The notes beneath the pieces are model-generated. The model saw only the letters and a list, made by a program, of their open reading frames with translations. It did no database searches and was not told the origin of the DNA. 45,477 nucleotides of DNA from a virus: IMG/VR virus record IMGVR_UViG_3300045988_117871; one strand, written 5' to 3'. This document shows, one piece after another, positions 1,845 to 38,112 of the stretch; the stretch's first letter is position 1, and the number at the start of each line of letters is the position of its first letter. The translations under genes and the position numbers were made by a program.

Positions 1845-2084
1845 TTAGATTTTAATACCGAATTGCGACAAAAGCTGTTGAGCCTGTTGCGGATCAATAC
1901 CACGTTGTTTTGCAATATTCATCACAGTTTCTTTTAACTGTTCAGGAGACTTACCTCGCGCCATTTCCATTGCGCGCCCAAACAGGGGGTTGCTCCCCAA
2001 CATTTTCTGCATCGCTTCCATCGGGTTTGGATTGCTGCGAAGCTGATTGAAGATTTGTATCATTGTGAATAGGTTCATTTGCAT
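1845..2084 (-). CDS. Small helical hypothetical protein
   Basis: 79-aa ORF. Strong SD AAGGGGG lies 9 nt before the ATG at 2084, with in-frame stops just upstream. It overlaps the tail of the 1951..2493 ORF. Confidence 0.7.
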   Translation of the reverse strand: MQMNLFTMIQIFNQLRSNPNPMEAMQKMLGSNPLFGRAMEMARGKSPEQLKETVMNIAKQRGIDPQQAQQLLSQFGIKI

Positions 2085-2493
2085 TTATTGTTTCCCCCTT
2101 CATATATCGTTCCAAAGAATTAACTTTTTGCTGCAGTTCTTCTACAGTCTCAGCATCAGCATATCTTTTAGGAGCCGGTTCTTTTTCCTGCGACAATTTA
2201 TAATTTTGTATTACCGGCATACCATTCATATCAATATACTTTGCATATATGCAGCTGTCTGCTGGGCAAGGGAAATATGTAAGGCTTCCATCTAAATCAA
2301 TTTGGGCAGCCTTAACCTCATCTAAGCTTGCAACTGTACGCCCTTTCATCATCAGGGGCATAGGCGGTTGTGGAACAAATTGCTGTTGTTGATACGCCGG
2401 CATCTGCGGCATTTGAGCTTGATAATTATTTAAACGTTGCTGCGTTACTCCCATCATTGCTGGATTAACAGGAGCATAAGGATTTACATACAT
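1951..2493 (-). CDS. Gln/Pro-rich hypothetical protein; 3' end uncertain (G5 run at 2094-2098)
   Basis: 180-aa ORF with SD GGAGG 8 nt before the ATG at 2493. The last ~45 codons overlap the next gene in another frame. Confidence 0.7.
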   Translation of the reverse strand: MYVNPYAPVNPAMMGVTQQRLNNYQAQMPQMPAYQQQQFVPQPPMPLMMKGRTVASLDEVKAAQIDLDGSLTYFPCPADSCIYAKYIDMNGMPVIQNYKLSQEKEPAPKRYADAETVEELQQKVNSLERYMKGETINANEPIHNDTNLQSASQQSKPDGSDAENVGEQPPVWARNGNGAR

Positions 2494-2582
2494 TGCTATC
2501 GCCTCCGTTTCTTACTTATATTGTCGCCTAAATCAGCTCTTATAATCCGTAAACATTCCCTCATAATTCCCTAATATGGGCA

Positions 2583-2621
2583 TAAAAAATAAGGCAGCCA
2601 CAACTATTATGTGACTGCCTT
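2583..2621 (-). terminator. Rho-independent terminator ending the lysis/regulator transcript
   Basis: Minus-strand hairpin AAGGCAGTCAC...GTGGCTGCCTT (2591-2621, one mismatch), followed by ATTTTTTATG. Confidence 0.65.
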
Positions 2622-2849
2622 TAATGCTCTCTTAACTGAATTATACGCCTGCTGCAGATCTCTTTCGACCGTTTGCACTGACGTATCTATTTTCATCGCT
2701 ATTTGATAGTTTTTAAGATCGTGAATAAACTTGAGTTCTATAATTTCTATTTGCCGCGGCGTTAGTTTGGCTTCTGAAATAATTGCTTCAAATTCCTTTC
2801 GTGTGGACTGCGAAAGCCAATCTCTTGCCTGCAAACGGCAAGTATCCAT
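2607..2849 (-). CDS. Small sigma-70 region-4 / LuxR-like HTH regulator
   Basis: 80 aa. LTPRQIEIIELKFIHDLKNYQIAMKIDTSVQTVERDL reads as a region-4-type helix-turn-helix. Confidence 0.7.
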   Translation of the reverse strand: MDTCRLQARDWLSQSTRKEFEAIISEAKLTPRQIEIIELKFIHDLKNYQIAMKIDTSVQTVERDLQQAYNSVKRALKAVT

Positions 2850-2853
2850 ATAA

Positions 2854-3315
2854 TCACCTGCTCGCTGCTATTGTTCCAACTAATGCCCCTCCTATAAATC
2901 CCCAAAAGGCCTTCTGTTTTTGTTTCAATTCACTTTTGGATTGTTCTTTCTTTATTTGCTCGCTCAATATCTCTAAGGATTTGTTTTGCTCTGCTATTAT
3001 TTTTTTGGAGTTCGACAATGATTCCTGCGCACTCGTTAGCTCGCTCCTTATCTTCTGATAAGATAAACGCTGCTCTTCGATTAGCTTCTTCAGCTCGTTC
3101 GAGTTCATCTGCTGCAGTTCCAACGTGTTCGATAGCCCTATCAACAGATTTTCCTGTCTGTTTATTATCGTCTGCAATTCCTTGAACTGTTCCCTGGACA
3201 TCGTTATTGTTTCCGGAAGTTCCTCCGCAAAACAATTTAAAGAAAATGATAAGCACAGCAATAAGGGCAAAACTAATAATAAGATACTTGCTATACCTGA
3301 TTTGTTTTTCTTCAT
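2854..3315 (-). CDS. Signal-peptide / coiled-coil / C-terminal TM protein (spanin-like candidate); frame B of an overlapping pair
   Basis: ATG at 3315 lies 10 nt after GAAGGG. N-terminal signal-like MKKNKSGIASILLLVLPLLLCLSFSLNCFA, heptad-rich middle, unique C-terminal AFWGFIGGALVGTIAASR. The stop is embedded in the SD of the next gene. Codon third positions are G-rich, which is off-frame-like. Confidence 0.5.
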   Translation of the reverse strand: MKKNKSGIASILLLVLPLLLCLSFSLNCFAEELPETITMSREQFKELQTIINRQENLLIGLSNTLELQQMNSNELKKLIEEQRLSYQKIRSELTSAQESLSNSKKIIAEQNKSLEILSEQIKKEQSKSELKQKQKAFWGFIGGALVGTIAASR

Positions 3316-3337
3316 TCACTTTCTGCCCTTCTTTCAA
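2930..3337 (-). CDS. N-terminal TM anchor + coiled-coil protein (i-spanin-like candidate); frame A of an overlapping pair
   Basis: TTG at 3337, or more likely GTG at 3319 (6 nt after GAAGGG). TM segment YLIISFALIAVLIIFFKLF followed by a charged helical domain. A/T-ending codon usage resembles the well-supported genes of this phage. Confidence 0.55.
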   Translation of the reverse strand: MKEGQKVNEEKQIRYSKYLIISFALIAVLIIFFKLFCGGTSGNNNDVQGTVQGIADDNKQTGKSVDRAIEHVGTAADELERAEEANRRAAFILSEDKERANECAGIIVELQKNNSRAKQILRDIERANKERTIQK

Positions 3338-3585: not shown

Positions 3586-4125
3586 TTACCAATTATGATG
3601 CCACCAGATCGCCTTACCACGAATAACATCACCGCCGGGTTTCAGTTCTCCGTCGCCTGGCACATCTGGTAATTTCCACAAGTCCCAGCGTTCAAAAGTA
3701 GTTGCCGGGCCGTAGTCGTCTAAGTCTGCAGCTTCTGCATGTGTCATTACGGTATCGGCATTAATGTCCAATCCAAGCTCCTCACACAGTACAGCTACAA
3801 CTTTTGCCATACTATCTATCTGCAACTCTGTCGGTGGCACGTTACCAAAGTCGATATGCCCATCAGCATAGGCTACAGCATCTACGCAGCACGCTAAAGC
3901 GATACCTACAGCCCCTGTATTACGCCGCCATGTATGAGCCTTATATTCAGTTAAATCATCGGTTGTCGCCATTATGGCGCCGTCGCTATCAATGTTTAAA
4001 TGATAATCACTGAAAAACTGGTGATAATTACCAGCTGACCAGTGTAGATAGATTTTATCAATATTACCTTTACCCCTTACTGCTAACTGCCGCAGCTCAT
4101 CTAAAGTGATTCTTTTCGTCACCAT
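3586..4125 (-). CDS. N-acetylmuramoyl-L-alanine amidase (Amidase_2/PGRP-type endolysin)
   Basis: IYLHWSAGNY...AHTWRRNTGAVGIALAC pattern. The ATG at 4125 has SD AGGAGG at 9 nt; the track start at 4161 lacks an SD. Confidence 0.8.
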   Translation of the reverse strand: MVTKRITLDELRQLAVRGKGNIDKIYLHWSAGNYHQFFSDYHLNIDSDGAIMATTDDLTEYKAHTWRRNTGAVGIALACCVDAVAYADGHIDFGNVPPTELQIDSMAKVVAVLCEELGLDINADTVMTHAEAADLDDYGPATTFERWDLWKLPDVPGDGELKPGGDVIRGKAIWWHHNW

Positions 4126-4438
4126 TGTTTTCTGCCTCCTGTTCAAACTTGTCAGGGACACCGTCCCCGTCTTTATCTACTAAACTTGTAGCTATAAAGG
4201 TCACAAATGCAACCATAGCCGGACCTGTGATCTCACGTATCAACGCCAGCAGGTCAGACATAATAATCTTATCCAACCACAACCACATATACATCCACGC
4301 AGCGTAATAGGTTAGTACCAGTAAAACGACTGCAATAAAATAGCCTACAATGACAGCCATTATTTTTGGCGACATTGAGGCTACTTTATTTCTGGCACTC
4401 ACTATTAAGTTTTTTATTTTCTCAAGCATAAATATCAC
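4097..4438 (-). CDS. Holin-like multi-TM protein with acidic C-terminal tail
   Basis: 113 aa with at least two hydrophobic helices. It lies between the XhlA-like and amidase genes. The start is ambiguous (GTG 4438 or ATG 4429). Confidence 0.6.
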   Translation of the reverse strand: MIFMLEKIKNLIVSARNKVASMSPKIMAVIVGYFIAVVLLVLTYYAAWMYMWLWLDKIIMSDLLALIREITGPAMVAFVTFIATSLVDKDGDGVPDKFEQEAENNGDEKNHFR

Positions 4439-4454
4439 TTATCCCTTTGATTAT

Positions 4455-4700
4455 TCACTTTATAACTACACCATAAACAGCTACCGCTAATGTCGCCAAC
4501 CAAGCCAGTAAACTTACGTTTCCGCGGATGCAACCGCTTTGACATTCTAAGTTTGTTATACGCTCCTCGTGATCGGCAATTGTTTTTTCTTGCTGATCAC
4601 ATTGTCTATTTTTCGCCTCACCCAAGACAACGAGCCTAGTTATCTCCTGACCCATTTGATCTAACCGTTCAAAAATTCTTCTAGTATCTCCTTCTGCCAT
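4455..4700 (-). CDS. xhlA: XhlA-like (haemolysin XhlA family) lysis-associated membrane protein
   Basis: 81 aa with a coiled coil containing DHEERITNLE, then the C-terminal TM LLAWLATLAVAVYGVVI. This is the typical XhlA layout and position. Confidence 0.6.
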   Translation of the reverse strand: MAEGDTRRIFERLDQMGQEITRLVVLGEAKNRQCDQQEKTIADHEERITNLECQSGCIRGNVSLLAWLATLAVAVYGVVIK

Positions 4701-4713
4701 ATCAACGCACCGC

Positions 4714-5367
4714 CTAATTTAATATAATAGCGTCCAAATCCTCTTTGCTTAATGCTGCGGCTACCTCTGCCTGCTTGCTCCAACCTTGCTGTTTGCAAGC
4801 GCCCACGTGGGACGATAAGTCAGCACACCATGTATATACCTGCGAAGCGTTAAGATACTGTATTGTTTTAACAGTTTCACCATCTTTATACCCCCGTACC
4901 GGACAGCCGTCAGGATATTCATTTTTAAAGCGTTCAGTGCTTACGTTCAGCGCAATCCCCTGCATCGTAATCTGCGTGTCCTTATCGCTATCATATCTTA
5001 CTATCTCACCAGTGCATTCAGATATAAAACCGCCTGCGATTTTTCTTTCAGTCCAAGCGTCTACCTCTGACAGCTTGATAGCTTTAAGTTCATCAAACGT
5101 AAGAGCTATATATTCACGTGCTGCTTTTTTAGCAATCAATTCATCAATACTTTTTAAAATATCTTCACAAATTTCATTTGGGTATTGTTGGAATGCTACT
5201 CCATTAAGCCAGCAACTCTCCGTTCCACAATTATAGTCAATAGACTTATACTCTATTTCTTTGCCATAATCAACAAAGAAATTATTTATTGTATCCATAT
5301 ACACTTTTTCTTGTGCTTGTACAATAACTTTATCGTTATTCGTATCTAAAATAATTATATTTTGCAT
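4714..5367 (-). CDS. Hypothetical protein, possibly a tail-fibre assembly/accessory protein (DUF4376-like by recall)
   Basis: 217-aa ORF directly downstream of the distal fibre gene. Confidence 0.7.
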   Translation of the reverse strand: MQNIIILDTNNDKVIVQAQEKVYMDTINNFFVDYGKEIEYKSIDYNCGTESCWLNGVAFQQYPNEICEDILKSIDELIAKKAAREYIALTFDELKAIKLSEVDAWTERKIAGGFISECTGEIVRYDSDKDTQITMQGIALNVSTERFKNEYPDGCPVRGYKDGETVKTIQYLNASQVYTWCADLSSHVGACKQQGWSKQAEVAAALSKEDLDAIILN

Positions 5368-5378
5368 TTTTATTCTCC

Positions 5379-5903
5379 TTACTCAATTCTTTCCCAACAG
5401 TAATATGTTACATATGGCGGCATATTATTATGCTCCGCACTACCACCAGTATTATCAATACTAATATCTGAAGCAAACGAAGAATTTAAATTAAAAGTAG
5501 TAATAGAACCGCTCCAATCTGTATTTCCACAATAAGCATTACTTGTATTGGTGTGGCTAAAAGCTCCACTACTATTAACATTTTGAAGTCTCCCAACAGT
5601 TATAGAACCACTCACGGTAGATGAAGTGGCACTAGCAGAATGCTTGTGCATTGGAATTTGATCAATCTCTAATGTAACATTTGCTTCACCTCCGTTACTC
5701 CCTGCTTGATAAGTATCTCCTGCAGCTAAAATAAATTTATCTTTTATCTGTGTCCACGTACCACCAAACAGAGTTCCTGGATCAGTAGGTTGCGAACTCC
5801 AATAAAGCGCTCCTACAGGATATGGATTTGGCGGCAAATCGTCATAAAGAGCATTGATTGCTGCTCTTATTTTTTCAACTGTTATTAGCCCAGTAAGCTT
5901 CAT
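5379..5903 (-). CDS. Tail-collar-domain fibre protein (distal receptor-binding candidate)
   Basis: YPVGALYWSSQPTDPGTLFGGTWTQI ... LEIDQIPMHKH matches the phage tail collar domain pattern. Confidence 0.75.
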   Translation of the reverse strand: MKLTGLITVEKIRAAINALYDDLPPNPYPVGALYWSSQPTDPGTLFGGTWTQIKDKFILAAGDTYQAGSNGGEANVTLEIDQIPMHKHSASATSSTVSGSITVGRLQNVNSSGAFSHTNTSNAYCGNTDWSGSITTFNLNSSFASDISIDNTGGSAEHNNMPPYVTYYCWERIE

Positions 5904-34666: not shown

Positions 34667-36565
34667 CTAAAATAAATTTATCGGTATCTCGGCTTCTGCT
34701 GCTATACCTTGCATAACATATAGTGCATTAGGTAGAGCTATTCCATTGCCCCACATTTTGTACTCTGCGCTATCAGAGTGCAGTTTGTTATACCAAGCTA
34801 ACATTTGCTCTCTTGTGTATTCTTTAGTGGCTTTGCCGTTGATTTCTGCGTAAGTGTTCCTCACGTCTAACCAAAAGGCATAATCTTCATCTGTCAGATT
34901 TTCTACCGGGTTTACTATTCCCCACCAAGACGGAAATCCTTGCAGTCTCGCACATTCTGTTGGTGTTAAACGGCGCACTATGTAATTTTTTACTACAATG
35001 TTTTCACTTCCACCGCCGTAGCTTCCGCCAGTAGCTTTTAGTGTCGACAGTGTACTTTCGTCCTTAAACTCTGTGTAAGACTTTTGCGCACACACAACAG
35101 CGGGCTTATCTATCGTATTAAGCGTGTAGCTTGTGTCCTCTTTCCACCCTTTGCCGTTGCAACCCGCTGTGTCTGCTCTGTCTATGCCGTTGCCTTGCAA
35201 GCAGTAGACAACTCCCGGAACATTATTACCACCCGTACCACATCTAGCCGTTATCGTAGGGCTTTTTTCAATATATTCGCTTGGCGTTCGCAATCTTGCT
35301 TCGCCTATATCGTAGCAACGTGTTATCGCCAAACAAGTGTAATCGGTAACCCTGTTATTGTGGTCACCTGTTATCGTTGGTACAGTTTCACCGGCGCCGT
35401 TGCCTCTTGTATCGTAAACAAGAGTTTTTTTATTAATAACGTAAGGCGCATTTCCGTGCGCTTCGGCCCTTAAAGTAGGGCTTTTACCATCAGTGCAGAC
35501 GCTGATTTGCTGACCGCCTTGGTCATCTAAAATAATTTTCTCTACGATAGCAATACCGCCTTGATTTTTCGACGGGTCAGGATACCCTGTATCTAAAGTT
35601 TTAGCGATTTCAACAGCACGGCAACCGCTATGCGGATTTTTGCTTTTCATACTATTCGAGGACAAGCTATCAAAACTATATGCAGTTAAACATTTTCCCG
35701 CTCTATCGATGCCGTTTCCTTGATGGCAATATACGGCTACTGGTGCTAACACTGTCGGTGTACAATCTCCGCCGCCAGGAGCCCGCAAAGTTTGTGCAAG
35801 TCCCGGCAAAAACGATTGATTATACCTATCTACTCCGCCGATTGCTGTTCCAACGCAGTTTTGAGCATCGGCGGCAATTCCTTGCCACGGCGTTCTGCCC
35901 GCCTCAAAATACCCTCGCAGGCTTTCGCGCTTAAATAGTATTTCTTGGGCACATTCGCCTCTAAAATCTGCGACAAGGTAGATTCTACGGCGGCGCTGGG
36001 GGACTCCCCAATATTGCGCGTCAAAAACTCGGTATGCAATGCTCCATCCGTCTCCACTGATACAATCTGCATATGCCCAGCCAGCTTGTGGAACCGCAGG
36101 CATAACGGCGTCCTTTTCTTTGACTCTAATAAATTCTTCAAGGACGGTTCTAAAATCTTCTCCTCGGTTACTGCTAAAGGCTCCGGGAACGTTTTCCCAA
36201 ATAGCGTATCTTGGATAAACTCCATTTGTTGCTTCCCTCATTTCTTTGATAATTCTGATTGCTTCTAAGAATAAACCGCTTCTTGTTGTTTCATCATCGC
36301 CCATATCAGCGTGTTTCAACCCTGCTCTTTTTCCCGCTATCGACATATCTTGGCAAGGACTGCCGAATGTGATTATATCTACAGGCTCTATTTCTCCGCC
36401 CTTAACTTTGCTAACATCTCCCAAATGTTTCATTTTTGGGAAACGATTTTTAGTAACAGCTATCGGGTATGGCTCAACCTCTGCCGCATAAACAGGCTCT
36501 ATCCCGCACAAGCTTGCTGCTAAAGGAAATCCTCCACTGCCATCAAATAAGCTCATTAGTTTCAT
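34667..36565 (-). CDS. dcm: DNA (cytosine-5) methyltransferase, orphan, with an extended variable region
   Basis: Motifs LFDGSGG (I), GSPCQD (IV), ENVPG (VI), QRRRRIYLV (VIII), RLTPTECARLQGFP (IX), GNGIALP (X). About 340 aa lie between VIII and IX. Confidence 0.9.
   Translation of the reverse strand: MKLMSLFDGSGGFPLAASLCGIEPVYAAEVEPYPIAVTKNRFPKMKHLGDVSKVKGGEIEPVDIITFGSPCQDMSIAGKRAGLKHADMGDDETTRSGLFLEAIRIIKEMREATNGVYPRYAIWENVPGAFSSNRGEDFRTVLEEFIRVKEKDAVMPAVPQAGWAYADCISGDGWSIAYRVFDAQYWGVPQRRRRIYLVADFRGECAQEILFKRESLRGYFEAGRTPWQGIAADAQNCVGTAIGGVDRYNQSFLPGLAQTLRAPGGGDCTPTVLAPVAVYCHQGNGIDRAGKCLTAYSFDSLSSNSMKSKNPHSGCRAVEIAKTLDTGYPDPSKNQGGIAIVEKIILDDQGGQQISVCTDGKSPTLRAEAHGNAPYVINKKTLVYDTRGNGAGETVPTITGDHNNRVTDYTCLAITRCYDIGEARLRTPSEYIEKSPTITARCGTGGNNVPGVVYCLQGNGIDRADTAGCNGKGWKEDTSYTLNTIDKPAVVCAQKSYTEFKDESTLSTLKATGGSYGGGSENIVVKNYIVRRLTPTECARLQGFPSWWGIVNPVENLTDEDYAFWLDVRNTYAEINGKATKEYTREQMLAWYNKLHSDSAEYKMWGNGIALPNALYVMQGIAAEAEIPINLF
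35830..36225 (-). CDS. Embedded alternative-frame ORF inside the methyltransferase gene (status uncertain)
   Basis: 131 codons. ATG at 36225 lies 8 nt after GAGGGAAG. It spans methyltransferase motifs VI-VIII in the +1 frame. Third positions are G/C-rich, which is off-frame-like. Confidence 0.3.
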   Translation of the reverse strand: MEFIQDTLFGKTFPEPLAVTEEKILEPSLKNLLESKKRTPLCLRFHKLAGHMQIVSVETDGALHTEFLTRNIGESPSAAVESTLSQILEANVPKKYYLSAKACEGILRRAERRGKELPPMLKTALEQQSAE

Positions 36566-36761
36566 GTTGATCCTCGCTACTTATGCTAACGCATTCCTTG
36601 TCCTGCAATCTTTTGAAGTTATTAAATATTTCCTGTGCTGTAACAGCCCGCGGATCATCTGACCACATCAAGCAGTTCGGGCAAATATGCACCTCAAAAT
36701 ATCGACCTCTGTTTACGTGACTACCCGCCGTTGTATCCTTATGGCATATATCGCAATTCAT
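36543..36761 (-). CDS. Small zinc-ribbon-like protein
   Basis: 72 aa, CDIC ... CPNC. Confidence 0.65.
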   Translation of the reverse strand: MNCDICHKDTTAGSHVNRGRYFEVHICPNCLMWSDDPRAVTAQEIFNNFKRLQDKECVSISSEDQHETNELI

Positions 36762-36770
36762 AATCTCACC

Positions 36771-37448
36771 TCAAAACGGTTCTGACTTATTAGTGTTCAG
36801 CTTGTCAAAATATTCTTCGCCTAAAATCTGTAGTTCTGCCATATCTGCAGCAAGGTTATACATTTTTGCGTGCTTATTATTTCCATGTGTATCGGTAACC
36901 TTAGCTCTAAATTCGGCAATAGTCCCTAAGAAACAACCACAAGACACTGTTATACCTTTGTCTTTATTTTTGAAAAATGTCGTAAAACTAAATCTACTAC
37001 CAATGCGACCGATCAATAAATAGTCAGCGTCGTCGCACACCCAAGCGTTGTCGCACACCCAAGCGTTGTCGCACACCATAACGTTGTCGCACACCCTAGC
37101 GTTGCCGTACACCCTAGCGTTGCCGTACACCCTAGCGTCGCCGTACACCCAAGCGTTGCCGTACACCCTAGCGTTGTCGCACACCCAAGCGTTGTCGCAC
37201 ACCCTAGCGTTGCCGTACACCCTAGCGTCGTCGCACACCCAAGCGTTGCCGTACACCCTAGCGTTGTCGCACACCCAAGCGTTGTCGCACACCCAAGCGT
37301 CGCCATCTTGCGCTAAGTTATCTTCTTTTTCCACATATCCACCAAGTTCACCAGCTTCAACACTTCCAAAGCTAATTAAAGCCTTAATCCTAAATAATTT
37401 CTTGCCCCATTGTTCTATAAACTCTGCTGTCAACTCATACTTTTTCAT
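36771..37448 (-). CDS. Hexapeptide-repeat (beta-helix-like) protein
   Basis: 225 aa with SD AAAGGAG. About 15 tandem NA(W/R)V(C/Y)(D/G) hexapeptides. Confidence 0.8.
37026..37310 (-). repeat. Tandem 18-bp repeat array (about 15 units) inside the CDS
   Basis: Units GTCGCACACCCAAGCGTT / GCCGTACACCCTAGCGTT occur every 18 bp from 37032 to 37301. All frames are open across it. Confidence 0.9.
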
Positions 37449-37461
37449 AGTTACCGCTCCT

Positions 37462-38112
37462 TTAAACTTTAGCTAAATCACCTTGACGACATGCTGACCG
37501 TTTTGGTACTACATCAGGCACTAACGGATGATATTTATAACACCGTTCACGATCAGCTACCACATAAGTAAATCCGCTTTCTTTATCTACCCTCAAAAAC
37601 GGTTGATGTCCGCTGTATGGACAATCAACAGTGTTAATACATTCAGCGCATTTTCGTTCAACGTCTGCGATAAAGCTGATATCGTTGTAATTACGCTTTA
37701 TAAAGCTATCATCGGCGTCAGGAAAAATCCTCTTTGCTGCAGCTCTGACTTTCTCACTCACTGGCTGCCGTAGTTCGCCAAATGTTTTACCGGCAGCAAG
37801 ATCAGCAAACAACTTTTTAACAAACTCATTTGCCGCTTTAGAATTACGCTCAATAGCCTTCTTCTCTGCACCGATTTTATTTTGTCGTAGGATTGATAAA
37901 GTATTATTAATATCTGCCCATGTTGGCCAATATTTATTATTATCAGCGATATAATCAACAGTATCGCCCCACATCTCAATGTCTGTGTATTTATAACGCT
38001 CCAGGGTTTGCCTTTCGATAGTTTTTTTTGCATCTTCGCTTCCCCAGTTTGGCTTTAATCCCGCCGCCTGCCACACTTCATAAGCTGCCGTTATCTCTCT
38101 AAGTTCCAACAT
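37462..38112 (-). CDS. Hypothetical protein of the replication module (C-terminal Cys cluster)
   Basis: 216-aa ORF overlapping the upstream gene by 14 nt. Confidence 0.75.
   Translation of the reverse strand: MLELREITAAYEVWQAAGLKPNWGSEDAKKTIERQTLERYKYTDIEMWGDTVDYIADNNKYWPTWADINNTLSILRQNKIGAEKKAIERNSKAANEFVKKLFADLAAGKTFGELRQPVSEKVRAAAKRIFPDADDSFIKRNYNDISFIADVERKCAECINTVDCPYSGHQPFLRVDKESGFTYVVADRERCYKYHPLVPDVVPKRSACRQGDLAKV

Follow-up and report, generated by a model that had tools for sequence, protein, structure and literature searches.

Of the known systems, the one nearest to the gene arrangement described here is M.EcoHK31I, whose embedded beta chain is read in a different frame within the alpha gene and without which the enzyme is not active (Lee, Kam & Shaw 1995; PMC2836561, PMC3404938). 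In M.AquI, the alpha chain comprises motifs I-VIII together with a portion of the variable region, while the beta chain holds the remaining variable region and motifs IX-X (PMC3404938). Both precedents were found in a literature search, which returned no published description of the open reading frame (ORF) reported below. In canonical C5 DNA methyltransferases (MTases), such as E. coli Dcm, the MTase of Streptococcus phage phi29854 and RB43-type phage MTases, an in-frame segment of the form L..(I/L)L(E/D)..V..KY.(L/I)(S/T)...........R.....G follows motif VIII. The Dmt protein of phage P1 joins a C5 MTase domain to a Dam domain. In bacteria and phages, it is rare for a long overlapping gene to lie fully embedded in another on the same strand and to show clear purifying selection.

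An ORF embedded in a phage C5 methyltransferase gene

The window, i.e. the whole stretch of 45,477 nucleotides analyzed (IMG/VR record IMGVR_UViG_3300045988_117871), encodes a C5 MTase of 632 amino acids on its minus strand, and a second ORF (hereafter the alternative ORF) lies inside this gene in the +1 frame. We estimate the probability at roughly 0.7 that the alternative ORF is a genuine, separately translated gene overlapping the MTase gene, and that its product would be an MTase module acting in trans. The features of the locus, in the direction of transcription, are as follows.

34667..36565, minus strand: host gene, 632-aa C5 MTase (PF00145, E 7.6e-40; TIGR00675; PHROG 116)
36530..36550, minus strand: MTase motif I, host frame
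36347..36364, minus strand: MTase motif IV, host frame
36232..36239, minus strand: Shine-Dalgarno-like GAGGGAAG, made by MTase codons Met109-Arg110-Glu111 (ATG AGG GAA), 6 nt ahead of the alternative ATG
35830..36225, minus strand: embedded alternative ORF, 131 aa, frame +1 of the MTase, ATG at 36225..36223, stop TAG at 35832..35830
36182..36196, minus strand: MTase motif VI (ENVPG, aa 124-128), host frame
36091..36108, minus strand: alternative-frame patch PLCLRF (alternative aa 40-45), conserved within an otherwise poorly conserved Ser/Lys-rich N-terminal part
35963..35998, minus strand: MTase motif VIII (QRRRRIYLVADF, aa 190-201), host frame
35845..35982, minus strand: alternative C-terminal domain (alternative aa 82-127, STLSQILEANVPKKYYLSAKACEGILRRAERRGKELPPMLKTALEQ), seen in identity, four-fold sites, codon-phase pattern, AlphaFold and hhalign
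35831..35962, minus strand: MTase-frame linker after motif VIII (aa 202-245), of which only EILFKRESLRG (35912..35944) is conserved in the MTase frame
34931..34975, minus strand: MTase motif IX (RRLTPTECARLQGFP, aa 531-545), host frame
34730..34750, minus strand: MTase motif X, host frame

All six C5 MTase motifs (I FxGxG, IV PCQ, VI ENV, VIII QxRxR, IX RxLTxxE, X GN) were located in the 632-aa frame in canonical order. The alternative ORF is situated wholly within the MTase gene, on the same strand in the other frame, and extends from 10 codons ahead of motif VI, across motif VIII, to 55 codons beyond the motif VIII Gln. Its position, ATG start and product, as given in the initial annotation, were all reproduced exactly, and the overlap with motifs VI to VIII, with both frames open, was borne out by the motif coordinates and by translation. 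The ORF had also been described as the longest same-strand alternative-frame ORF outside the lysis pair, which agrees with its second rank among the embedded same-strand ORFs of the window, the longest being 2930..3337. The proposed ribosome binding site, GAGGGAAG with a GAGG core, is present, although its spacing to the ATG is 6 nt and not 8 as first reported; the GAGG core ends 10 nt 5' of the ATG.

As in M.EcoHK31I, a small polypeptide would be encoded wholly inside a large MTase gene, on the same strand and in another frame, and it would supply a piece of the fold that the large chain lacks. The two cases differ in content: the M.EcoHK31I beta chain carries motif IX, which here belongs to the MTase frame, and the alternative ORF corresponds to the segment that comes after motif VIII and leads into the variable region. 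M.EcoHK31I is, moreover, a single restriction-modification enzyme, while the present family of phage and mobile-element MTases is very large. The window MTase also differs from M.AquI, as it forms one uninterrupted frame from motif I to motif X with no division into two such polypeptides; its two halves share a frame, and the N-terminal module of the beta chain is the one part left as a separate ORF.

The third codon positions of the alternative frame are G/C-rich, as had been pointed out, with a GC content of 0.61 compared to 0.38 in the MTase frame. The N-terminal alternative sequence (LFGKTFPEP, TDGAL..NIGESP) is also a direct shadow of MTase motifs VI-VIII, and such frames can mislead gene finders. 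These properties would fit a non-coding or accidental ORF, be it the shadow of a conserved gene or the result of conservation at the DNA or RNA level (a recently spread segment, an RNA structure or a binding site), an explanation that we hold to be very improbable in view of the openness and the substitution patterns found in homologues.

Openness of the alternative frame in homologues

By employing 80 homologous IMG/VR loci (57-100% identity), picked through the MTase frame and not through the alternative frame, we found that about 78 keep the alternative frame open at the corresponding position, with a length of 134-163 codons. The ATG is found 10 or 13 codons before motif VI in these homologues, and the stop 55-69 codons past the motif VIII Gln. 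Among 80 species-representative genomes, 60 had a single-ORF MTase with a separate alternative ORF of 98-171 aa, which reached at least 125 aa in 57. Interruption by stops in most homologues, which had been put forward as grounds for rejecting the ORF, was consequently not seen, the frame being open in all 60 of the single-ORF genome loci as well.

When synonymous codons were resampled with the MTase protein sequence kept, the probability of an open alternative frame was 0.002 for the window gene and on average 0.047 per gene, while the frame was observed to be open in 25 out of 25 non-redundant homologues. The density of stops in the +1 frame of the same genes is 0.09 per codon upstream of the alternative ORF and 0.04 downstream of it. 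Openness well above the resampling expectation argues against an accidental ORF. Gene finders have called the alternative ORF in databases as well, in the form of 3,782 unnamed clusters at 50% identity. The suspicion in the initial annotation that its sequence motif could derive from off-frame annotations is correct as to the existence of such nameless calls; what they capture, on the other hand, appears to be a real coding frame.

Selection in the overlap

Synonymous variation of the MTase frame, which had been proposed as a check, is strongly suppressed exactly over the alternative ORF. In the one Clostridia-phage clade (27 sequences) used for the quantitative analysis, with diversity calculated pairwise and statistics ignoring phylogeny, the MTase four-fold difference is 0.656 over codons 1-112 and 0.633 over motifs IX-X, i.e. 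outside the alternative ORF. Divergence at four-fold sites drops from 0.71 to 0.33 exactly at the alternative Shine-Dalgarno/ATG, where it stays at 0.33-0.39, and falls further to 0.06-0.13 at the PLCLRF patch and to at most 0.05 over the C-terminal 45 codons of the alternative ORF. Within the patch, P40, C42 and L43 are invariant among 47 alternative products.

The distribution of variation over codon positions changes accordingly. Right after QRRRR (motif VIII), the greatest diversity shifts from MTase position 3 to MTase position 1, which is alternative position 3, and MTase position 3, which is alternative position 2, becomes the least variable. Over the most constrained stretch, alternative third positions differ by 0.4-0.5 and second positions by 0.04-0.13; from this difference it follows that the protein in the alternative frame is conserved, and not the nucleotide sequence, contrary to what conservation of a DNA or RNA element would give. 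Mean pairwise amino acid identity over the C-terminal domain is 0.80 in the alternative frame versus 0.54 in the MTase frame, the latter being 0.47 from +20 to +50 after motif VIII. Beyond EILFKRESLRG, the remainder of the MTase-frame linker is carried along by the alternative frame.

Host synonymous suppression confined to the overlap, combined with codon-phase variation that fits a second frame, is the pattern of a protein-coding overlap. Judged by these substitution patterns, the alternative ORF evolves as a real protein-coding gene and not as a chance shadow ORF. The earlier proposal that the ORF is a genuine gene served by a Shine-Dalgarno sequence of its own gains support from the openness in homologues, the synonymous constraint and a codon preference at the putative ribosome binding site (see below).

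The alternative product and its canonical counterpart

The product would consist of a poorly ordered Ser/Lys-rich N-terminal part, followed by a conserved C-terminal domain of a strand and two helices, with the consensus LSQILE..KYYLSAKACEGILRRAERRGKxLP. AlphaFold models the C-terminal domain of the window protein with a pLDDT of 79-93 and places the two helices at aa 100-113 and 119-130, while the N-terminal 80 aa look disordered in the prediction. For a beta-type relative (see below), the C-terminal domain and motifs IX-X were modeled with confidence, but not the target-recognition domain (TRD) and the N-terminal part.

Searches of Pfam, NCBIfam and PDB sequences with the alternative product gave nothing meaningful, and no Pfam or NCBIfam family covers the module. 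PHROG 16143 matched weakly, and only to alternative aa 67-102. Foldseek against the PDB gave no usable or functional match for the module; in the beta-type relative, only motifs IX-X were matched (M.HhaI, DRM). A counterpart was instead indicated by profile-profile comparison, as hhalign aligned the alternative family with a profile of six canonical C5 MTases at a probability of 89% (E 2e-6), a score that none of 150 column shuffles reached. The pairing joins alternative aa 52-113 to residues 279-339 of E. coli Dcm, directly after motif VIII. Significance was obtained only with the six-sequence profile, the comparison with E. coli Dcm alone being weak (E 0.035). The canonical MTases were taken from annotated phages, since an IMG/VR scan with the Dcm segment gave almost no diversity. 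An HMM of the alternative family likewise matches canonical MTases weakly at the post-motif-VIII position, and found no match in the MTase-frame polypeptides of the family itself.

Most likely, then, the C-terminal domain is the counterpart of the canonical post-motif-VIII segment that the MTase-frame chain lacks. The segment belongs to the one polypeptide of canonical MTases, whereas here its coding sequence is the +1 frame of a stretch that specifies motifs VII-VIII and the linker as well. A de novo (overprinted) origin of the gene was considered and rejected, as the conserved domain matches a canonical in-frame MTase segment and so has a homologue outside the overlap; the behavior of an overprinted extension is confined to the N-terminal 80 aa.

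Distribution and module arrangements

The domain was found in the same +1 frame of P1 dmt, Mycobacterium phage Omega, Vibrio phage 24, Caulobacter phage DMCA, Streptococcus phage Javan422 and Ruminococcus phages; for these phages, the comparison covered ORF presence and domain conservation only. P1 Dmt and the PHROG 116 phage C5 MTases belong to the same family as the window MTase, with a QRRRR motif VIII followed by (I/V)LFExEG, and P1 dmt holds a homologous +1-frame ORF of 162 aa (2216..2704 of locus L006) ending in LSQVLEQTSIPQRYFLSSKACAGILRRGEKRRKSLPPLLQMAL. P1 differs from the window in the extra Dam domain and in an ORF start 24 codons before motif VI. The embedded ORF carries no annotation in NC_005856. 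A megablast search of GenBank phages with the MTase gene gave no match, and P1 and the window share about 50% amino acid identity in the alternative frame without detectable DNA similarity, which is hard to reconcile with non-coding conservation.

In other relatives (L087, L088 and L041), the ORF from the same ATG is extended without a frame change into the TRD and motifs IX-X, and the same continuation was found in 106 of the best 120 relatives of protein P0134. Clusters of such beta-type proteins have up to 435 members, on contigs of up to 268 kb, and their invariant columns are concentrated in the alternative domain and in motifs IX and X. The split alpha/beta form was found in 5 out of 80 genome loci. 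Assembly artefacts were rejected as a source of these long domain-carrying proteins, since the beta-type clusters run to hundreds of members spread over many long contigs and the loci show intact overlapping ORFs. L087, L088, L041 and P0314-type relatives resemble M.AquI in being split into two ORFs between motif VIII and the TRD, with the difference that the two ORFs of the split relatives overlap by about 150 codons. The MTase-frame linker is broken by stop codons in the split relatives L002, L087, L088 and phage Omega.

The family is built from three modules, namely an N half (motifs I-VIII), the alternative module and a C half (TRD and motifs IX-X), for which the compared loci show three arrangements. 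In the window and in P1 dmt, the N and C halves are fused in one frame with the alternative module as a separate small ORF. In the second arrangement, the alternative module and the C half form one continuous frame, so that the alpha and beta ORFs overlap, and the third keeps all three modules separate. This constitutes a natural case of one enzyme whose modules have been re-joined in three ways through frame changes.

Initiation at the alternative ATG

Ribosomes would start at the ATG at 36225 by way of the GAGG that arises where the MTase codons for Met and Arg (AGG) adjoin. The Arg codon in question is AGG in 23 out of 25 non-redundant homologues, while AGG makes up 15.5% of the Arg codons elsewhere in the same genes. 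An alternative to independent initiation is programmed frameshifting, in which MTase ribosomes slip +1 near motif VIII to give the N half joined to the alternative C-terminal domain, or ribosomes in the alternative frame make a -1 slip close to its stop and enter the TRD/IX-X frame to give a beta-like protein. Strong protein conservation limited to the C-terminal 45-50 alternative codons is consistent with such a slip, as is the start position, which varies among distant phages (P1, -24; Omega, -58; Vibrio phage 24, -17). The window clade has, furthermore, a CCC_C sequence (Val-Pro-Gln, GTC CCC CAG) just ahead of motif VIII, and the database proteins P0007, P0089 and P0126 are chimeras of the N half joined to the alternative domain.

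Frameshifting is nevertheless unlikely. The CCC_C sequence is not conserved, because P1 has Ala in place of Pro before motif VIII; a slip after motif VIII would remove the LSQILE part of the domain; and the chimeric proteins are seldom found and occur as singletons, which would fit indels from assembly. The alternative tails ahead of the stop are variable and no shared slippery heptamer was seen by inspection. The alternative frame is also open for about 85 codons ahead of the conserved domain (resampling P = 0.09 for that part alone), and the synonymous constraint starts at the Shine-Dalgarno/ATG and not at motif VIII. Selection on the AGG codon points in the same direction, and so do the split relatives, which keep the ATGAGG..ATG context and in which exactly this ATG must start the beta subunit.

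A putative second chain

In the reading that we prefer, a separately translated MTase module, the C-terminal domain would be the segment that in single-chain C5 MTases leads from motif VIII into the target-recognition (small) domain. The fusions and the homology suggest that the small protein attaches to the MTase in trans and so makes its DNA-recognition domain complete, and by likeness to the M.EcoHK31I beta chain, which its alpha chain needs, it may be required for methylation. A translated product with a different role, such as a regulator of MTase expression or activity, or an unrelated phage factor sharing the DNA, seems doubtful. To its credit, the window MTase chain already joins motifs I-VIII to the TRD and motifs IX-X, so that a further subunit is not obviously required; the basic RRAERRGK face of the modeled two-helix domain could bind nucleic acid, and the structural searches gave no match tying the module to MTase folds. 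Yet the alternative ORF was never found apart from this MTase family, thousands of relatives carry it as an in-frame fusion with the TRD and motifs IX-X, and it aligns with the canonical in-frame segment missing from the MTase-frame chain.

A wider proposal, to which we give about even odds, is that a very large family of phage and mobile-element C5 MTases annotated as single-chain, including P1 Dmt, consists of obligate two-chain enzymes, with the second chain supplied by a fully embedded +1 frame of about 130 codons, and that single-base indels at the end of this frame switch lineages between fused, split and three-piece forms. If this two-chain reading is true, few of the long same-strand overlaps between genes that are known in bacterial viruses would be as widespread, and the second chain would at present be missing or mis-called in essentially all annotations. 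The embedded ORF itself is present in thousands of sequences, and its deep conservation spans Clostridia phages, P1, the Vibrio and Caulobacter phages and mycobacteriophages. The overlap accounts for a systematic annotation error, in which either the ORF is called and the MTase truncated or dropped, or the MTase is called and the ORF missed. Should the small protein be a required subunit, heterologous expression and specificity work on these phage MTases would need an intact second frame, which codon-optimized synthetic MTase genes would destroy.

The alternative reading frame and its host gene

The initial annotation had described a 131-codon, ATG-started ORF at 35830..36225 inside a C5 DNA methyltransferase (MTase) gene, and translation of the window confirmed it. 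This alternative ORF is fully contained in the MTase ORF, in the +1 frame relative to it. It starts 10 codons 5' of MTase motif VI (ENVPG), spans motif VIII (QRRRRIYLVADF) and stops 55 codons past the motif VIII Gln. The SD-like sequence preceding it is encoded by MTase codons Met109-Arg110-Glu111, and its spacing to the ATG is shorter than the 8 nt originally claimed.

34667..36565, minus strand: MTase ORF, 632 aa (PF00145, E 7.6e-40; PHROG 116; TIGR00675)
35830..36225, minus strand: alternative ORF, ATG start, 131 aa
36239..36232, minus strand: SD-like GAGGGAAG, 6 nt 5' of the alternative ATG

Distribution in phages and plasmids

The database search that had been proposed for the 131-aa product returned matches in 1,259 clusters (90% identity), the majority unnamed proteins of 131-145 aa, while the C-terminal 70 aa matched 3,782 clusters (50% identity). 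The tblastn hits of the product came from 148 phage records and from 532 plasmids, the bulk of them P1-like. The match in phage P1 is an unannotated 162-aa ORF in the +1 frame of dmt, ending in ..LSQVLEQTSIPQRYFLSSKACAGILRRGEKRRKSLPPLLQMAL, and +1-frame matches were also found in Mycobacterium phage Omega, Vibrio phage 24, Caulobacter phage DMCA, Streptococcus phage Javan422 and a Ruminococcus phage. As to whether such hits always lie inside MTase genes, they do so in P1 dmt and the window-type loci, but they also occur fused to the target-recognition domain (TRD) and motifs IX-X, or as an ORF of their own in three-piece loci. No description of the alternative ORF was found in a literature check of limited reach.

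At one homologous locus (3622..5484 in the NCBI MAG GCA_965337045.1), a 139-aa alternative ORF and a 337-aa C-terminal piece have been called as genes and the catalytic N half has not, although the 620-aa MTase ORF there is intact. Such calls look like a systematic mis-annotation of the MTase family that bears the alternative ORF.

Openness of the frame and its start signal

Homologues were gathered by MTase-frame similarity alone, with aa 1-260 of the MTase searched against IMG/VR, so the sample is unbiased towards an open alternative frame. The +1 frame was open for 134-163 codons at the equivalent place in approximately 78 of the 80 loci (57-100% MTase identity), although stops in most homologues would have been expected had this not been a gene. 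In these loci the first alternative ATG lies 10 or 13 codons 5' of motif VI, and in the homologue alignment the stretch from motif VIII to the alternative-frame motif GILRR is free of indels.

When synonymous codons were resampled, keeping the MTase protein and each gene's own codon usage, the +1 frame stayed open with a probability of 0.002 in the window gene and with a mean probability of 0.047; against this mean, the frame was open in all 25 non-redundant genes. Outside the region of the alternative ORF, the same genes have a +1-frame stop per 11 to 23 codons. The Arg codon that forms the GAGG of the SD is AGG in 23 of 25 genes, as compared with 15.5% of Arg codons elsewhere in them, and an ATGAGG..ATG start context is common to the Firmicutes-type loci.

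Selection in the alternative frame

The suppressed synonymous variation in the MTase frame that a second coding frame had been predicted to leave was seen over the alternative ORF, most strongly at its C-domain (alternative aa 82-127).

Four-fold differences along the MTase gene (27 sequences of one clade, below 93% nucleotide identity; pairwise differences, no tree correction)
Codons 1-112, upstream of the alternative ORF: 0.656
Codons 105-120, KEMREATNG, alternative SD and ATG: 0.33-0.39
Codons 121-145: 0.45-0.55
Codons 149-157, alternative PLCLRF patch: 0.06-0.13
Codons 193-240, alternative C-domain: 0.05 or less
Motifs IX-X: 0.633

Up to motif VIII, position 3 of the MTase codon is the most variable. 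Directly past QRRRR the peak moves to MTase position 1 (alternative position 3), and variability is now lowest, at 0.04-0.13, in MTase position 3 (alternative position 2). From 5 to 50 codons past motif VIII, the alternative-frame products have a mean pairwise amino-acid identity of 0.80, versus 0.54 for the MTase frame. What is conserved here is thus the protein in the alternative frame and not the DNA as such. The codon-phase pattern contradicts the idea that the ORF is non-coding or open by chance.

A ribosomal shift between the MTase frame and the alternative frame is disfavoured, because the upstream 85 alternative codons are kept open, constraint starts at the SD and ATG, there is selection for the AGG codon at the SD, and inspection revealed no conserved slippery site. 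As judged from sequence, the best-supported reading is that the alternative ORF is a separately initiated gene.

Arrangements of the modules

In a set of 80 species-representative genomes retrieved with the alternative module, 60 had the window-type arrangement, i.e. a single MTase frame with a separate alternative ORF of 98-171 aa (at least 125 aa in 57 of the 60); five had a split form, four another arrangement, and 11 were unclassified.

In many database proteins the whole alternative product, N-terminal part as well as C-domain, shares one reading frame with a TRD and motifs IX-X. For one such protein, this fused form was found in 106 of its 120 best relatives; some clusters of the form have up to 435 members, on contigs of up to 268 kb, and its invariant columns are concentrated in the alternative C-domain and motifs IX and X. 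Loci of such proteins (L087, L088 and L041) have two ORFs overlapping by about 150 codons. The first, in the MTase frame, comprises motifs I-VIII followed by a short tail; the second starts at the same alternative ATG and takes in the TRD, motif IX and motif X. One 470-aa metagenomic protein (P0215) consists of the alternative module, TRD and motifs IX and X and then continues, without a change of frame, into motif I of another MTase (MGSLFDGIGGFPL...); it could have arisen by read-through of tandem MTase genes or by circular permutation of the enzyme.

N half, alternative ORF and C half are separate ORFs in the three-piece arrangement of locus L002 (JGI 3300024272, 4387..4438) and phage Omega. 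In L002 the MTase frame stops at 4387-4389 and restarts, in the same frame, at an ATG at 4435; the alternative ORF spans the gap. Its stop overlaps the C-half ATG (ATGA), an arrangement that suggests that translation of the C half is coupled to that of the alternative ORF. This arrangement occurs on at least 12 of the 18 contigs carrying the protein. In Omega (AY129338, 1637..2986), gp127 and gp128 are both labelled hypothetical proteins; gp127 comprises motifs I-VIII in a 262-codon frame closed by a stop, and the 159-codon alternative frame between them (1851..2330) is unannotated.

Resemblance to the canonical variable region

A profile of the alternative family matched one of six canonical C5 MTases (E. 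coli Dcm; a Dcm homologue, 72% identical, on an IMG/VR viral contig; Streptococcus phage phi29854; a Blautia phage; RB43; a Klebsiella phage) with a probability of 89% (E 2e-6), a small reference set. Alternative aa 52-113 aligned to Dcm 279-339, the segment immediately past motif VIII, with a score of 47.4 versus a maximum of 23.5 in 150 column shuffles. The alternative-family HMM gave weak matches to canonical MTases at this same position, and none in the MTase-frame polypeptides of the family bearing the alternative ORF. AlphaFold predicted a strand and two helices for the C-domain (pLDDT 79-93) and disorder for the N-terminal 37 aa; Foldseek gave no informative match to the alternative structure.

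A role unrelated to the MTase is disfavoured by this homology and by the in-frame fusions. The best-supported reading of the comparisons is instead that the alternative C-domain would be the canonical leader of the C5 MTase variable region, now read from the +1 frame across motifs VI-VIII and the linker. The TRD and motifs IX-X would have moved into the MTase frame in the window and P1, with the alternative module retained under strong purifying selection as a small protein, which may associate with the MTase and complete its small (DNA-recognition) domain.

The closest precedent for such an embedded second chain is M.EcoHK31I, whose beta chain is required for activity and is read from a different frame inside the gene for the alpha chain (PMC2836561; PMC3404938). 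The alternative ORF is a variant of this kind rather than a member, since motif IX is carried by the M.EcoHK31I beta chain but lies in the MTase frame in the window. The split relatives of the window gene resemble M.AquI (PMC3404938).

Other features of the window

A 72-aa Cys-rich ORF (36543..36761, minus strand; CxxC ... CxxC, zinc-ribbon-like) adjoins the MTase upstream and shares the 23 nt at its 3' end with the region of the MTase start codon. A 225-aa ORF (36771..37448, minus strand) consists of about 16 tandem six-residue units (NAWVCD / NARVYG) with an 18-nt period, and the repeat DNA also yields long shadow ORFs at 37013..37306 (minus) and 37048..37476 (plus). The window's other long same-strand overlap, termed the lysis pair in the initial annotation, lies at 2854..3337 (minus): a 135-aa ORF (2930..3337) is approximately 95% overlapped out of frame by a 153-aa ORF (2854..3315), and starts 22 nt 5' of the latter's start codon.
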